Below are positions 1-32,000 of a stretch of 32,000 nucleotides of DNA, piece by piece. The position numbers and the translations under genes are program-made. Origin of the DNA: Cupriavidus necator (GTDB taxonomy: Bacteria > Pseudomonadota > Gammaproteobacteria > Burkholderiales > Burkholderiaceae); the NCBI RefSeq assembly GCF_016127575.1, contig NZ_CP066019.1, forward strand, positions 360,001 through 392,000, given 5' to 3'. Numbering within the stretch: position 1 is the first letter of the stretch; every line of letters starts with the position of its first letter. The notes beneath the pieces were generated by a model that was given only the letters and a program-made list of their open reading frames with translations, searched no databases and had not been told where the DNA came from.

Positions 1-87
1 CTGCGCAACCACCAGCGCTCCCATGACATGCGCGAGGGCTTGCTGGCCTTCGCCGAAAAGCGGCAGCCCGTCTTCAAGGGCTGCTGA
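1..87 (+). CDS. enoyl-CoA hydratase/isomerase (crotonase) family protein, 3' end only (gene starts upstream of window)
   Basis: Frame 1 reads LRNHQRSHDMREGLLAFAEKRQPVFKGC followed by TGA at 85-87. The EG-x2-AF-x-EKR-x-P-x-F tail is the usual crotonase C-terminus. The next gene starts 20 nt downstream. Confidence 0.6.
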   Translation: MRNHQRSHDMREGLLAFAEKRQPVFKGC

Positions 88-106
88 ACCGACACAAGGA
101 ACCACC

Positions 107-1252
107 ATGGACTTGCTCTACTCGGAGGAGCACAAGGCGTTCCGGCAGGAAGTGCGCGACTTTCTCGCCGCCAACCTGCCGGACGACATGCGCGAGCGCC
201 TGCGCGCCGGCGGCTTCGCCACCAAGGACGACAACGCACTCTGGCAACGCAGGCTGAACCAGCGCGGCTGGGGCGCGCCCGCCTGGCCGAAGGCATTTGG
301 CGGCGCCGGCTGGGACGCCGACCGCCAGCGCATCTTCGCCGACGAATGCGCTGCCGCGCCGGCACCGACGCCGCACCCGTTCAACATCACCATGCTGGGG
401 CCGGTGCTGATCCACTTCGGCTCCGACGTGCAGCGTGAGTATTTCCTGCCCAAGCTTCTGAACGCCGACATCCAGGTCTGCCAGGGATTCTCGGAACCGG
501 GCTCCGGCTCCGACCTTGCCTCGCTGAAGACCACGGCTGTTCGCGAAGGCAATGAGTACATCGTCAACGGCCAGAAGATCTGGACGAGCCAGGCGCATTA
601 CGCGGACTGGGCCTTCTGCCTGGTGCGGACCGACGTCGACGCGGTGAAGAAGCAGGCCGGCATCTCGTTCCTGCTGATCGACATGAAGTCGCCGGGCATC
701 ACCGTGCGCCCGATCATCAGCATCGACGGCCGCCACAGCCTGAACGAAGTCTTCTTCGAGAACGTGCGCGTGCCTGCCGACAACCTGGTGGGCGAGGAGA
801 ACAAGGGCTGGAGCTACGCCAAGTTCCTGCTCGGCCACGAGCGCGCCCACATCGCCGGCATCGGCCGCAACAAGGAGCGCGTGGCCTGTGCCAGGGCGCT
901 GCTGGCGAAGATGGAGGACGAGGGCTACCCGGAGGCGACGCTGGCAGCCTATCGCGGACGGATTGCCATGATCGAAGCCGACCTGCATGCGCTGGAAGTG
1001 ACGCAACTGCGCGTGCACGGCGGGCACGCCGACGCGAAGCTGTCGCCGATGCTGAAGGTTCGCGGCAGCGAGATCTTCCAGGCCGTCACCGACCTGCTTT
1101 GCCGGATGACCGGCACCGGTTCGCTGCCCGCCGACGGCGCCGACGTGACGCTGACCCGGTCCTACCTGTACTCGCGCGCCGTCTCGATCTTCGGCGGTAC
1201 CACCGAAGTGCAGAAGAATATCCTTTCCGCTTCCCTCCTGGATCTGTCATGA
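107..1252 (+). CDS. acyl-CoA dehydrogenase family protein (alpha-like member of an adjacent ACAD pair)
   Basis: Lies in ORF 23..1252. ATG at 107 (MDLLYSEEHKAFRQEVRDF) is preceded by AAGGA at 94-98. ACAD hallmarks are present: CQGFSEPGSGSDLASL, NGQKIWTS and the C-terminal IFGGTTEVQKNIL. GC3 is high. Confidence 0.9.
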   Translation: MDLLYSEEHKAFRQEVRDFLAANLPDDMRERLRAGGFATKDDNALWQRRLNQRGWGAPAWPKAFGGAGWDADRQRIFADECAAAPAPTPHPFNITMLGPVLIHFGSDVQREYFLPKLLNADIQVCQGFSEPGSGSDLASLKTTAVREGNEYIVNGQKIWTSQAHYADWAFCLVRTDVDAVKKQAGISFLLIDMKSPGITVRPIISIDGRHSLNEVFFENVRVPADNLVGEENKGWSYAKFLLGHERAHIAGIGRNKERVACARALLAKMEDEGYPEATLAAYRGRIAMIEADLHALEVTQLRVHGGHADAKLSPMLKVRGSEIFQAVTDLLCRMTGTGSLPADGADVTLTRSYLYSRAVSIFGGTTEVQKNILSASLLDLS

Positions 1253-2346
1253 ACCTGCAACTGAACGACGTCCAGCAGCAACTGCAGGACAGCCTGGGGC
1301 GGCTGCTGGCCCGCGAGTACGACTTCGGCCGCCGCCAGCAATATGCGGCGTCCGCTGCCGGGCATTCGCCCGAGGCGTGGGCGCAACTGGCCGGTCTGGG
1401 CGTAACGGCCGCGGCCATCGGCGAGGCGCATGACGGCTTCGGCGGCGACGCCGTCGACCACATGATGATCTCCGAGGCACTCGGCAAGTGCCTGTCGCTG
1501 GAGCCGTATCACGGCACCGTGGTCATGGCGGCCACGGCCATCGAACAGCTGGGCTCGCCCACGCAGCAGTCCAGCCTGTTGCCGCGGATCGCGCGGGGCG
1601 AACTCCAGGTGGCGTGGGCACATGGCGAATCGGTGCCCGGGCGCATCGCCACGCGCGCTGCCCATGGCGTGGATGGCTGGCGGCTCTATGGCACCAAGCC
1701 CTGCGTGCTGCATGGCACCGGGGCGGATTACTTCCTCGTGACCGCGCAGGCGCCGAATGAGGGCGTCCAGCTGTTCCTGGTCAATGCCAGCACCACGGGC
1801 GTGCGCAACGCCGGCGGCCGCCTGATCGATGGCACCCCGGCGGCGGACCTGGCGCTGGATGACGCCGAGGGCGAGCGGCTTGGCACGCTGACGCCCGCGC
1901 TGCTGACCCGTCTGCTGGAAACCGGCATCAGTGCCGCCTGCGCCGAGATGGTCGGCGCGATGGATGGCGCCTGCGCGCTCACCGTCGCGTACCTGAAGAC
2001 GCGCTCGCAGTTCGGTCGCGTGATCGGAGCGAATCAGGCGCTGCAGCACCGCGTCGTCGACATGCTGACCGCGCTGGAGCAGAGCCGCAGCATGTCGGTC
2101 TCGCTGGCGCTTGCACTGGCAGGGCGCAATGACCTGACCGGCGCCGAGGTGCCGGTCCACGCGGCCAAGGTGCTGGTGACGCAGAACGCGCGCCACGTCG
2201 CGCAGGAAGCCATCCAGCTGCACGGCGGCATCGGCATGACCGAGGAGTACGCCGTGGGGCACTACCTGCGCCGCATCCTCGTGCTCGACCAGCTGCACGG
2301 CGACATGCAATACCACCTCGGCTACCTCGAGCGGCGCGCCGCCTGA
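1249..2346 (+). CDS. acyl-CoA dehydrogenase family protein (beta-like partner, degenerate FAD-contact motif)
   Basis: ATG at 1249 overlaps the upstream stop (ATGA at 1249-1252), which suggests translational coupling. The ACAD C-terminal domain is recognisable (QFGRVIGANQALQHRVVDM, IQLHGGIGMTEEYAVGHYLRR). The SEPxxGSD position instead reads HGESVPGR. Confidence 0.85.
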   Translation: MNLQLNDVQQQLQDSLGRLLAREYDFGRRQQYAASAAGHSPEAWAQLAGLGVTAAAIGEAHDGFGGDAVDHMMISEALGKCLSLEPYHGTVVMAATAIEQLGSPTQQSSLLPRIARGELQVAWAHGESVPGRIATRAAHGVDGWRLYGTKPCVLHGTGADYFLVTAQAPNEGVQLFLVNASTTGVRNAGGRLIDGTPAADLALDDAEGERLGTLTPALLTRLLETGISAACAEMVGAMDGACALTVAYLKTRSQFGRVIGANQALQHRVVDMLTALEQSRSMSVSLALALAGRNDLTGAEVPVHAAKVLVTQNARHVAQEAIQLHGGIGMTEEYAVGHYLRRILVLDQLHGDMQYHLGYLERRAA

Positions 2347-2400
2347 TCGGCTGGCAGCGCCACCCCAAAGCAATCCCCATACATCCCAAGGAGACAAACC

Positions 2401-30986: not shown

Positions 30987-31004
30987 GGGGGCTCGTCGCG
31001 GGGC

Positions 31005-31349
31005 TCAGGCAGCGTATCGCCAGGACTCGTTGCCGGCATGGAAAGGAGAGGGGCGCCGCAATCCCTGCATGCGGCGGTGCGCGGCCCAGAACAGCACGCG
31101 CAAAGGGAGGTCGAGGCTGCCGCTGGCGTCGTGGCATTGCACGGCATCCGGTTCGACCGCCACGCCAAGCTCGGCTGCCGACGCATATCCCACCACGCTC
31201 ACGCGGGCGTCGCCGTGCTGCAGGCATTCGCCGAGCAAGGCACGCAGGGCTTCCGGGTAGGACGGTGCGCCGGGGCGGCTCGAGCTTGCCAGCGCCCGCT
31301 GTTGCAGCTGGCGGCTGGCCTGCCTGACTTCCTGCAGGAGGTCCATCAT
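31005..31349 (-). CDS. hypothetical protein (about 114 aa; start uncertain)
   Basis: This is the 3' part of ORF 31005..31559. High GC3 and ordinary amino-acid composition begin at MMDLLQEVRQASRQL (ATG at 31349), while the upstream part is Arg/Pro-rich and looks non-coding. It stops 18 nt before the DUF2889 start. I recognise no family. Confidence 0.4.
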   Translation of the reverse strand: MMDLLQEVRQASRQLQQRALASSSRPGAPSYPEALRALLGECLQHGDARVSVVGYASAAELGVAVEPDAVQCHDASGSLDLPLRVLFWAAHRRMQGLRRPSPFHAGNESWRYAA

Positions 31350-31736
31350 GCGCTCTCGCGGCGCGGTGGCGTGGGCAGGCTGGTGCCCTGCGCGGGGCCG
31401 TGGTGGTAGCGGCGTGGTGCAAACGTATGCTGACATCGGAATGTGCGGGTGATGCGCCGGCCACGATGGCGGCGCGGAGCCTGCGAAGCAGTGTGAAGCC
31501 GGCAGCCGTCCGGCATCCCCACTCGACGAGGGGGGGCGAGTGCGCCCGGTACGCCGCACGACGCCTTAAGTCCGCCTTGCAGTGAAACAGCCCCGCGCTC
31601 CAGGTGACAGAAACGGGCCCATTCAACTGCCCGTCCGCCGCAGGCCATATGCGCCGCGATGCGCCACCCGCGTCGGGGAGTGCCTGGCGCCATGGCAGCG
31701 GCAATCATGCTTCCAGTACTGCCTTCCTGTTACCGC

Positions 31737-32000
31737 ATGCCTACGACCAACCCGCATCTTCATTACGTTCCAGCCGGCGTCACGCTTCCCGTGGCGGCGC
31801 ATGAAGGTGATCCCTTTCGAAGCCTGAAGGTCATGGCCGAGGCGAATCCGGACGCCGTCGTGGCCACCGACGAGGCCGGCGGACCGCTGACCTGCGCGCA
31901 GTTGCTGAATGCGAGCCTCATGCTGGCGGGATACATGCAGCAGCGCCTGGATGTCCGCGGCGGCGAGCGTGTGTTGCTGATGCTGCCGGCATATCCCCCG
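31737..32000 (+). CDS. AMP-dependent synthetase/ligase (acyl-CoA ligase) family protein, 5' end only
   Basis: The frame is open from 31608 to the window end, so it is not in the ORF track. The translation ...MAEANPDAVVATDEAGGPLTCAQLLNASLMLAGYMQQRLDVRGGERVLLMLP has the typical N-terminal layout of adenylate-forming ligases. The start is uncertain: ATG at 31659, 31692, 31707, 31737 or 31833. Confidence 0.6.
   Translation, partial: MPTTNPHLHYVPAGVTLPVAAHEGDPFRSLKVMAEANPDAVVATDEAGGPLTCAQLLNASLMLAGYMQQRLDVRGGERVLLMLPAYPP

Follow-up and report, generated by a model that had tools for sequence, protein, structure and literature searches.

The closest described relatives of the system reported here are the thiolase-fold aldolases TcLtp2 and CtSal, for which a DUF35 zinc-ribbon partner is obligatory in the TcLtp2-ChsH2 and CtSal-Shy complexes (PMC12329534). 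A short motif of the thiolase fold reads HDCF in SCP2-thiolases, YDCF in the trypanosomal SLP, YDCY in CtSal and YDHF in TcLtp2, and catalysis is assigned to Tyr302 and Cys304 in CtSal and to Tyr294 and Tyr344 in TcLtp2 (PMC12329534, on the Comamonas bile-acid aldolase, 2025). Here, we analyse a 32,000-nucleotide (nt) stretch of Cupriavidus necator DNA (NZ_CP066019.1, positions 360,001 to 392,000; hereafter the window) that encodes a thiolase-fold protein with a further motif, YDSF, beside a standalone DUF35 protein, together with genes for an alpha-methylacyl-coenzyme A (CoA) racemase and two predicted heteromeric acyl-CoA dehydrogenases (ACADs). The window corresponds to approximately 434,664-466,663 of chromosome 2 of C. 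necator (Ralstonia eutropha) H16 (AM260480.1), in the same orientation. It is probably an ordinary, vertically inherited stretch of the H16 chromid, carrying at least three separately regulated acyl-CoA modules for carboxylates imported by TctC/Bug proteins rather than one island. Of most interest is the YDSF/CNNHP family, whose partners are conserved and which seems to be a variant of the Ltp2/Sal aldolases that has not been described.

Because the sequence is GC-rich, real genes were picked by third-position GC and then compared with called genes, which left about 25 intact genes in the window. Families were assigned through Pfam, NCBIfam and solved-structure searches and residue-level alignments. 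Synteny was read from 80 loci around racemase homologues and from chromid and plasmid regions around homologues of the thiolase-fold protein, with all window proteins mapped onto them (L numbers denote these loci); family membership, catalytic-residue patterns and synteny are given below as observed. The crotonase at 7267-8052 (261 aa) is H16_B0389 (PMC4230905). The other locus tags, approximately B0383-B0407, are approximate and derive from consecutive protein accessions. An Rfam scan of the window gave no match and a promoter scan found none, while a terminator scan returned fewer hairpins than in shuffled sequence, with two plausible exceptions (6444-6465 and 25786-25807). A preliminary description of this DNA, made from the sequence alone, had seen an island rebuilding a toolkit for 2-methyl-branched acyl-CoAs. 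Nearly all of its enzyme families and coordinates were borne out by our searches; it lacked a short-chain dehydrogenase/reductase (SDR) at 2401-3171, a fifth ACAD, an NMO/FabK-like gene, a DUF2889 gene and a toxin-antitoxin remnant.

The Cys-less thiolase-fold protein and its DUF35 partner

Two adjacent genes on the minus strand are the focus of this section:

29143..30309, minus strand: Cys-less thiolase-fold protein of the YDSF/CNNHP type (B0406; PRK08142, 776 bits)
28708..29106, minus strand: standalone DUF35 protein (B0405; zf-ChsH2 and OB_ChsH2_C domains)

Publicly annotated as an acetyl-CoA acetyltransferase, B0406 lacks both catalytic cysteines of a thiolase. It reads ETGGSS where an archaeal thiolase reads EAACAS, so that Gly replaces the nucleophilic Cys, and YDSF where SCP2-thiolases read HDCF, so that the acid/base Cys is also gone. 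Neither motif varies across 13 homologues with 59-92% identity, which come from Cupriavidus, Delftia, Variovorax, Phaeobacter, Rhodococcus, Methylobacterium, Rhizobium and the archaeon Natrinema. Since nucleophile and acid/base Cys are absent family-wide, B0406 cannot perform covalent thiolysis, and a true thiolase at 29143-30309 is rejected on the same ground. A paralogue of B0406 in C. necator N-1 (30% identity) keeps the full thiolase set of Cys, HDCF and GHP.

Among solved structures, B0406 is most similar to 4u4e (E 7e-93, 315 bits), an uncharacterised "thiolase"; CtSal ranks second (9MYR, E 1e-56, 196 bits), and TcLtp2 matches too (6ok1, E 3e-43, 151 bits). Tyr281, within IYDSFT, aligns with TcLtp2 Tyr294 and CtSal Tyr302. 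Ser occupies the position of CtSal Cys304, His332 stands at the position of TcLtp2 Tyr344 and CtSal Gln352, and Cys329 lies three residues before it; these features, too, do not vary among the 13 homologues. From these alignments we predict Tyr281 as the base and His332 (or Cys329) as the acid. B0406 most likely catalyses retro-aldol cleavage, and both its subtype and its catalytic pair would be previously undescribed.

The partner protein, B0405, combines a Cys4 zinc ribbon (CDSC...CPFC) with an OB fold and is not fused to a MaoC hydratase. Each of the 13 family copies examined is followed directly by a DUF35 gene. The SCP-x/Ltp2-like thiolase fold with DUF35 previously proposed for 28708-30309 thus stands, as two genes and Cys-less like Ltp2 and Sal. 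A plasmid of the haloarchaeon Natrinema caseinilyticum (L096) holds two tandem-region YDSF thiolase-like/DUF35 copies, with 59% and 61% identity to B0406. Presence of the pair in Natrinema means that the family crosses the divide between bacteria and archaea.

The surroundings of the pair were compared across genomes (ACS, acyl-CoA synthetase; ACADL and ACADS, large and small ACAD subunits; ECH, crotonase; LAL, LAL-type regulator):

Cupriavidus sp. KK10: DUF35-thiolase-like-TctC-DUF2889, divergent to TctC-LAL-SDR-ACADL-ACADS-MaoC
C. necator N-1: LAL-DUF2889-thiolase-like-DUF35-ACS, with an ACAD pair alongside
C. metallidurans CH34: TctC-SDR-thiolase-like-DUF35-ACS
Cupriavidus sp. EM10: ACADL-ACADS-thiolase-like-DUF35
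Methylobacterium aquaticum: ACS...ECH-SDR-thiolase-like-DUF35
Rhodococcus sp. DK17: a P450 and ferredoxin system, then SDR-thiolase-like-OB fold-MaoC
Delftia acidovorans plasmid NZ_CP065697.1 (L088 2168-18820): ACAD pair, acyl-CoA synthetase, TctC, double MaoC, crotonase, SDR, thiolase-like and DUF35 genes between two IS1071 transposase genes

Across these genomes, the genes that we group below as module B (MFE-2-type SDR, ACAD pair, MaoC and ACS) travel with the thiolase-like/DUF35 pair. In six genomes other than H16, the pair has a homologue of the MFE-2-type SDR, the ACS or the ACAD pair as a neighbour. The two-IS1071 bracket in Delftia is the usual form of a mobile catabolic transposon.

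A joint reading of these patterns, which we offer tentatively and regard as possible rather than probable, is that YDSF/CNNHP proteins with a standalone DUF35 partner form a third, mechanistically distinct class of CoA-ester retro-aldolases whose catalytic pair is Tyr/His or Tyr/Cys. Their partners in a mobile cassette for side-chain clipping would be an MFE-2-type dehydrogenase and an acyl-CoA synthetase, frequently joined by a heteromeric ACAD and a MaoC hydratase, and the cassette would be distributed from Betaproteobacteria to Actinobacteria and haloarchaea. In H16 this cassette would act downstream of the racemase module and clip propionyl or acetyl units off carboxylates that are alpha-methyl, beta-branched or ring-attached, for instance naphthenic-type, terpenoid and 2-substituted propionic acids.

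Acyl-CoA modules and their gene order

The left part of the window holds the racemase and its partner genes (module A):

1..87, plus strand: 3′ end of a crotonase gene (approximately H16_B0382; called gene mapped to window coordinates)
107..1252, plus strand: ACAD large (catalytic) subunit, PimC/ChsE4-like (approximately B0383; Pfam ACAD N, M and C domains; pimC_large, 412 bits)
1249..2346, plus strand: ACAD small subunit, base-less, PimD-like (approximately B0384; pimD_small, 249 bits)
2401..3171, plus strand: FabG-like SDR, not a crotonase (approximately B0385; adh_short_C2, E 3e-58; FabG-type NCBIfam matches under cutoff)
3179..5323, plus strand: ADP-forming acyl-CoA synthetase with alpha and beta parts fused (approximately B0386; CoA_binding_2, Succ_CoA_lig, ATP-grasp_5)
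5376..6314, minus strand: LysR-type regulator (approximately B0387; HTH_1, LysR_substrate)
6444..6465, no strand: perfect GC-rich palindromic hairpin of 9 bp in the gap that runs from the HSD10-like stop to the LysR start
6498..7253, minus strand: HSD17B10-type (type II) 3-hydroxyacyl-CoA dehydrogenase (B0388; solved-structure matches)
7267..8052, minus strand: crotonase (H16_B0389; ECH_1, E 8e-57; PRK09245, 436 bits, passing the cutoff of 354)
8125..9303, minus strand: alpha-methylacyl-CoA racemase (B0390; CoA_transf_3 fold PF02515, E 7.5e-87; 1x74)
9313..10326, minus strand: TctC/Bug periplasmic binding protein, first gene of the racemase operon (B0391; TctC, E 1e-64)

The remainder of B0382 and a canonical thiolase, B0381, lie immediately upstream of the window. 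The hairpin at 6444-6465 is probably the terminator of the racemase operon.

B0390 carries only the public annotation of a CaiB/BaiF-family acyl-CoA transferase. It aligns end to end with the Mycobacterium tuberculosis racemase MCR (1x74; E 1.8e-113, 383 bits), and it matches Far (2g04) with 344 bits, while its best CoA-transferase match reaches 132 bits (E 2e-37) and no NCBIfam transferase equivalog cutoff is reached. The equivalents of MCR His126, Asp156 and Glu241 are conserved (AGHD, LGDFAGGG and VGPVEARFY). Judged by these scores and residues, B0390 is a true MCR/AMACR-type racemase, predicted to epimerise (2R)- and (2S)-methylacyl-CoA. The preliminary description had proposed an AMACR/Mcr-like racemase at 8125-9303 and had allowed that the protein might instead be a CoA-transferase; the racemase survives, and the transferase is ruled out by scores (383 versus at most 132 bits) and by the catalytic residues.

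The dehydrogenase of the same operon, B0388, is publicly annotated as a type II 3-hydroxyacyl-CoA dehydrogenase. It matches a bacterial 3-hydroxyacyl-CoA dehydrogenase (4xgn, E 4e-116), human and rat HSD10 (E 1e-82 to 1e-83) and Rv1144 (E 3e-75), with the next SDR classes at E 1e-35 or weaker, and has both the Gly-rich NAD motif (GGASGLG) and YxxxK (YAASK). The HSD10 matches bear out the earlier assignment of an HSD17B10-like enzyme to 6498-7253, for which activity on 2-methyl-3-hydroxyacyl-CoA is predicted.

Conservation of module A was followed in seven other Cupriavidus-type loci, from six Cupriavidus species and one unclassified Burkholderiaceae isolate (L013); the racemase loci are those of C. 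lacunae, C. yeoncheonensis, C. pinatubonensis, C. numazuensis, C. necator A5-1, strain UYMMa02A and Burkholderiaceae bacterium 16. TctC-MCR-ECH is conserved in 7/7, with the B0391 homologue upstream of the racemase each time. The HSD10-like gene is present in 6/7 (absent from C. lacunae) and LysR in 5/7; a LysR gene lies beside the racemase operon in six related loci when KK10 is counted (L007, L010-L013 and KK10). The divergent ACS-SDR-ACAD-ACAD operon adjoins the racemase operon in 3/7 (C. lacunae, C. pinatubonensis and C. numazuensis). Beyond Cupriavidus, a Spongiibacteraceae genome (L067) has SDR10-MCR-ECH-ACADL-ACADS, contiguous and on one strand, and in a Salinisphaeraceae contig MCR adjoins an HSD10-like SDR. 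This shared synteny marks racemase, crotonase, HSD10-type dehydrogenase and heteromeric ACAD as a recurrent functional set.

Module A (B0381-B0391, with LysR alongside) probably serves as a beta-oxidation set for 2-methyl-branched acyl-CoAs, in a step order that we infer from the enzyme families. After TctC-assisted uptake, the ADP-forming synthetase would make the CoA ester, and the MCR-type racemase would turn (2R)- into (2S)-methylacyl-CoA. The alpha2beta2 ACAD, with one catalytic and one base-less subunit, would desaturate it, crotonase would hydrate the product, and the HSD17B10-type enzyme would oxidise the 2-methyl-3-hydroxyacyl-CoA. Propionyl-CoA would then be released by the canonical thiolase just upstream of the window. 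For this part of the window, our results support the original idea of 2-methyl-branched acyl-CoA oxidation.

Module B, which lies in two parts in H16, includes the thiolase-like/DUF35 pair listed above:

10712..11758, plus strand: TctC binding protein (B0392; TctC, E 8e-72)
11839..15711, plus strand: LAL/MalT-type regulator (B0393; HTH_23, AAA_16, GerE)
16075..17034 (alternative start 16123), plus strand: MFE-2/Hsd4A-type SDR (B0394; 2et6, E 1.7e-91; HSD17B4, E 2e-54)
17066..18283, plus strand: ACAD large catalytic subunit (B0395; 4x28_A, E 7e-61; pimC_large, 377 bits)
18299..19432, plus strand: ACAD small subunit, base-less (B0396; 6wy8_A, E 7e-34; Glu at neither base position)
19444..19899, plus strand: single-hotdog MaoC (R)-specific enoyl-CoA hydratase, 151 aa (B0397; Rv0130, E 7e-52)
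26552..28657, minus strand: second ADP-forming acyl-CoA synthetase (B0404)
30381..30986, minus strand: DUF2889 protein, first gene of the thiolase-like operon (B0407; DUF2889, E 8e-40)

Both ACAD pairs of the window follow the same pattern. In an alignment of the five ACADs, both large subunits have Glu in the column of ChsE4 Glu247, and the small subunits, each with Gly in this column, stop short of the YEGT motif. In B0383 this Glu lies in GHERA, with Gly in the column of MCAD E376. B0395 Glu244 aligns with ChsE4 Glu247, the similarity to ChsE4 spanning residues 50-343 only (we take 4x28_A to be M. tuberculosis ChsE4; its database name is acyl-CoA dehydrogenase only). One catalytic subunit per pair is what would be expected of alpha2beta2 enzymes, and the two adjacent ChsE-type pairs previously placed at 107-2346 and 17066-19432 prove to have one catalytic and one base-less subunit each. 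The best named NCBIfam models for both pairs are pimC_large (412 and 377 bits, cutoff 624) and pimD_small (249 and 282 bits, cutoff 653). We reject identity with PimCD, the pimeloyl-CoA dehydrogenase, as all scores fall far under these cutoffs.

Other module B genes recur at matching positions. B0392 has a 73% orthologue upstream of the LAL regulator in KK10, and B0393 has orthologues in the same position in KK10 (61%, same architecture) and N-1 (51%). Besides its C-terminal LuxR/GerE helix-turn-helix (HTH), B0393 carries an extra N-terminal homeodomain-like HTH (HTH_23/HTH_29, residues 41-98). B0394 is presumably an (R)-3-hydroxyacyl-CoA dehydrogenase. In C. metallidurans CH34, Methylobacterium and Rhodococcus DK17, a homologue of it is the immediate upstream neighbour of the thiolase-like gene; on N-1 plasmid pBB1 (L091 14153-14461), only a 103-aa fragment of an MFE-2-type SDR lies beside the LAL regulator, where the gene seems to be decaying. 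B0397 has Asp and His at hydratase-2 motif spacing in GDHQWIH. The split MFE-2 proposed earlier, an Hsd4A-like dehydrogenase plus a MaoC hydratase-2, is upheld for both halves by the structure matches listed. Orthologues of B0404 (61-73%) adjoin the thiolase-like/DUF35 pair in N-1, CH34 and Methylobacterium, and a DUF2889 gene adjoins the thiolase-like gene in KK10 and N-1 also. Racemase homologues of Hydrogenophaga, Variovorax, Pseudorhodoferax and a betaproteobacterial metagenome-assembled genome (L074, L077, L078, L082, L084) also have a DUF2889 homologue (37-40%) no more than 10 kb away, so this family of unknown function seems tied to acyl-CoA clusters.

Module B (B0392-B0397 and B0404-B0407, with the LAL regulator) is probably an (R)-specific side-chain cleavage set like the igr operon and the Sal/Shy system. 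The second ADP-forming synthetase would activate the acid, the second alpha2beta2 ACAD would desaturate it, and the MaoC (R)-hydratase would add water. The C-C bond would then be cleaved non-thiolytically by the Cys-less thiolase-fold protein bound to the standalone DUF35 zinc-ribbon protein, giving acetyl- or propionyl-CoA and an aldehyde or ketone. The module would also include the MFE-2-type dehydrogenase, for which a pure aldolase route offers no explanation.

Module C and a toxin-antitoxin remnant separate the two halves of module B in H16, and a partial gene closes the window:

20206..21216, plus strand: TctC binding protein (B0398)
21352..22323, minus strand: TctC binding protein of module C (B0399)
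22427..23590, minus strand: ordinary MCAD-type ACAD of module C (B0400; Glu in the PEGT motif)
23734..24897, plus strand: NMO/FabK-like flavoenzyme of module C (B0401; NMO, E 3e-61; FabK, 253 bits, under cutoff)
24920..25756, plus strand: crotonase of module C (B0402), followed by the terminator-like hairpin at 25786-25807
26026..26458, plus strand: toxin-antitoxin remnant, a 50-aa toxin stub overlapping an intact 96-aa HTH/MqsA-like antitoxin
31659..32000, plus strand: truncated AMP-binding (acyl-CoA ligase) gene, N-terminal part, exiting the window end

Module C, comprising a TctC protein, a normal ACAD, an NMO-like reductase and a crotonase, is probably an unrelated insert. B0400 has orthologues (77-81%) near the racemase operon in two other Cupriavidus species, and B0401 is a possible enoyl reductase. 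The toxin-antitoxin remnant, with module C on one side and the ACS-DUF35-thiolase-like operon on the other, may be where an old rearrangement took place. The AMP-binding gene is 234 aa as called, and the sequence ahead of it (30990-31650) has a weak coding signal that suggests decay. About 4-7.5 kb past the window end (L098 3013-6738), a gene beside a porin gene encodes a 1241-aa fusion of GMC oxidoreductase, metallo-beta-lactamase-type alkylsulfatase and SCP2 domains, an unusual combination.

With all genes placed, some earlier counts change. Of three crotonases, two are complete (7267-8052 and 24920-25756) and the third, B0382, is represented by only its last 87 nt. Likewise, two of three CoA-activating enzymes are complete, both ADP-forming (3179-5323 and 26552-28657), and the third is the truncated AMP-binding gene. 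The four periplasmic carboxylate-binding proteins (9313-10326, 10712-11758, 20206-21216 and 21352-22323) are all TctC by Pfam.

The notion of one island does not survive comparison among relatives. GC content is even throughout the window (0.66-0.72), a tRNA search of the window found none, and the modules are ordered differently in related genomes. A horizontally acquired island is rejected for want of a compositional break, tRNA or integrase, and because the modules have been rearranged independently among species. The preliminary description had expected the modules, if they formed one pathway, to be conserved and expressed together. Taken as one block they are not co-conserved, and the window contains six or more transcription units with regulators from two families (LysR and LAL), which in part bears out the refutation that the description itself had allowed for; linkage holds within subsets, namely module A and the neighbours of the thiolase-like/DUF35 pair. 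B0394-B0397 (MFE-2-type SDR, ACAD pair and MaoC) are not found within 10 kb of the racemase in any of the seven Cupriavidus-type loci. A nucleotide search of the plasmid/chromid collection returned a single partly syntenic record, KK10 (80% identity, 36% coverage), in which the surrounding genes are kept and the racemase and HSD10-like gene are missing from between the TctC and crotonase genes. On KK10 plasmid p1 (L087 25727-27379), an insertion of about 1.65 kb cuts the B0386 synthetase orthologue in two. The earlier gene calls were largely right; the window itself is a mosaic of modules such as Cupriavidus chromids typically carry.

Competing explanations and significance

Several points weigh against separate modules that include an aldolase. 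In CtSal, changing the Cys at the third motif position to Ser abolished activity (PMC12329534), so any acid assigned in a YDSF enzyme is provisional. The aldolase prediction is drawn from motifs only, and in three genomes the gene immediately ahead of the thiolase-like gene encodes a dehydrogenase, as would suit a keto-cleaving enzyme more than an aldolase. The ACAD pairs score highest with PimC/PimD, the pimeloyl-CoA dehydrogenase of dicarboxylate degradation, and TctC proteins often bind di- and tricarboxylates; taken together, these two points mean that the substrates could be plain dicarboxylates. Modules A and B lie next to each other in H16, C. oxalaticus (by accession order), N-1 and, with the racemase missing, KK10, and a functional tie between them may exist. 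Open literature on the H16_B037x-B040x locus tags yields one in-silico mention only. Searches of the open literature on the racemase in Cupriavidus gave nothing useful, and those on structure 4U4E, on Rv1143/Rv1144 and on the H16 tags with testosterone gave nothing.

The alternative that best withstands the evidence, although we consider it unlikely, is that the whole window encodes a single integrated pathway for one imported branched, alicyclic or bulky carboxylate, degraded in successive rounds as in the sterol side chain. The adjacency of modules A and B just described, partial in KK10, agrees with it, as does the Delftia IS1071 cluster, which joins homologues of module A (54% to B0383, 45% to B0384 and 58% to B0385) to the module B pair (81% and 58%). 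Enzymes of the same kinds serve sterol side-chain degradation, where a racemase and heteromeric ACADs work with both types of hydratase, an MFE-2-type dehydrogenase and an aldolase (see also PMC12329534 and PMC8204306). Against a single pathway stand the six or more transcription units under two regulator families, the distance of B0394-B0397 from the racemase in the seven loci, the retention of modules A and B in KK10 without the racemase and HSD10-like gene, and the interruption of module B in H16 by module C and the toxin-antitoxin remnant.

Somewhat less likely again is generic redundancy, in which paralogous beta-oxidation operons for ordinary fatty acids or pimelate/adipate-type dicarboxylates lie side by side and the likeness to known toolkits is incidental. 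Cupriavidus has dozens of beta-oxidation operons beside Bug/TctC genes, and Bug/TctC receptors are over-represented in Cupriavidus and Bordetella. Many same-family paralogues crowd the homologous regions of KK10, N-1 and EM10, PimC/PimD is the best named family for both ACAD pairs, and the binding proteins are all TctC. Yet the PimC/PimD scores (377-412 versus 624; 249-282 versus 653) are far too low for the named family, unbranched substrates leave a true racemase, its catalytic residues intact, without a function, and the linkage of this racemase to the HSD10-type gene in Cupriavidus and two gammaproteobacterial genomes points to 2-methyl branches. A Cys-less thiolase-fold enzyme, moreover, cannot do ordinary thiolysis.

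The remaining alternative concerns steroids. C. necator ATCC 17699, which is H16 by its UniRef names, grew on testosterone and neither grew on nor transformed cholate or cholesterol (Bergstrand et al. 2016, PMC4810484), in agreement with the preliminary view that this is not a classical steroid cluster. By reciprocal BLAST, Cupriavidus genomes lack most cholate side-chain genes; a ring pathway is predicted in H16, and the replicon given for H16 in that study's supplementary file 5 is chromosome 2 (NC_008314) (PMC4810484). No KshA/KstD/Hsa-type ring genes occur in the window by Pfam, as noted before, nor among called genes approximately 2 kb upstream and 9 kb downstream, and neither linkage to ring degradation nor sal/shy/sad-type domains were found in the window or flanks. 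A true steroid or bile-acid side-chain cluster feeding a 9,10-seco pathway encoded elsewhere on chromosome 2 is highly improbable: growth on testosterone, the predicted ring pathway, the second rank of CtSal among B0406 structures and the best match of B0395 to 4x28_A (taken as ChsE4) speak for it, but the cholate and cholesterol phenotypes, the missing side-chain genes, a B0406 with neither the Sal pair (Tyr, Cys) nor the Ltp2 pair (Tyr, Tyr), an unfused DUF35 protein and the lack of ring genes in the window and immediate flanks speak against it. A role of the window genes in bile-acid or sterol side chains is thus argued against, and their substrates are probably not cholate or cholesterol.

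Separately regulated modules, which remain the reading we favour, would matter in several ways. H16 is a major biotechnology chassis, and most of its many paralogous acyl-CoA clusters are without an assigned substrate. In two cases the public annotation seems mistaken or too loose: B0390, called a CoA-transferase, is a racemase by its scores and residues, and B0406, called an acetyl-CoA acetyltransferase, cannot be a thiolase. Should the YDSF family prove to be aldolases, the recently recognised thiolase-fold aldolases would extend beyond steroid metabolism, with a handle on side-chain removal from quaternary or ring-attached carbons in naphthenic acids, terpenoid acids and 2-arylpropionate drugs. 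If it does not, the region would be one more redundant beta-oxidation neighbourhood.

Comparison with described systems

The earlier analogy to the AMACR/MFE-2/SCPx and Mcr/ChsE/Hsd4A/ChsH/Ltp2 toolkits is apt, given the racemase, the ACAD bases and the Cys-less fold, and each element can be set against its nearest counterpart. M. tuberculosis shares the pairing of a racemase with an HSD10-like SDR (MCR and Rv1144; B0390 and B0388). We take MCR to be Rv1143, and so a neighbour of Rv1144, a tag that comes from the PDB entry name. Unlike the mycobacterial pair, the H16 pair belongs to a TctC-led operon beside LysR and a heteromeric ACAD operon, and its enzyme activity is predicted. The ACADs resemble ChsE4-ChsE5 (FadE26-FadE27) and PimC-PimD in being encoded by adjacent gene pairs, with Glu in the large subunit and no base in the small one; they differ from PimC/PimD in scoring well under the equivalog cutoffs, and from ChsE4 in that similarity is limited to residues 50-343.

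Like peroxisomal MFE-2 (HSD17B4), or Hsd4A with hydratase 2, module B combines a dehydrogenase whose nearest relatives are MFE-2 dehydrogenase domains (B0394) with an (R)-hydratase-type MaoC protein (B0397). Unlike MFE-2, ChsH and Shy, these are two separate genes, and the hydratase, a 151-aa protein of the Rv0130 type, has a single hotdog where theirs is double. The benzylsuccinate bbs operon also shares a family III fold, ACAD, crotonase, SDR, DUF35 and thiolase fold, with BbsB and BbsD among the structure matches. In contrast to the bbs system, B0390 is a racemase and not a BbsEF-type transferase (84 and 70 bits), and BbsB, a named thiolase subunit, covers only residues 134-383 of B0406 and has HDAF in place of YDSF. 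A Bbs-type pathway was rejected on the partial BbsB alignment, the His at the Tyr position and the racemase in place of a transferase.

The comparison with the thiolase-fold aldolases cuts both ways. Unlike Ltp2 and Sal, B0406 has YDSF (versus YDHF and YDCY), a His at the acid position and a family Cys three residues before it; its DUF35 partner is standalone with a Cys4 ribbon, its scores to the two aldolases are modest (151 and 196 bits), its family reaches haloarchaea, and its host does not degrade cholate or cholesterol. Like TcLtp2-ChsH2 and CtSal-Shy, it has an SCP2-thiolase-like fold with Gly for Cys, a Tyr placed as the base, a DUF35 partner next door, and ACAD and MaoC genes nearby.

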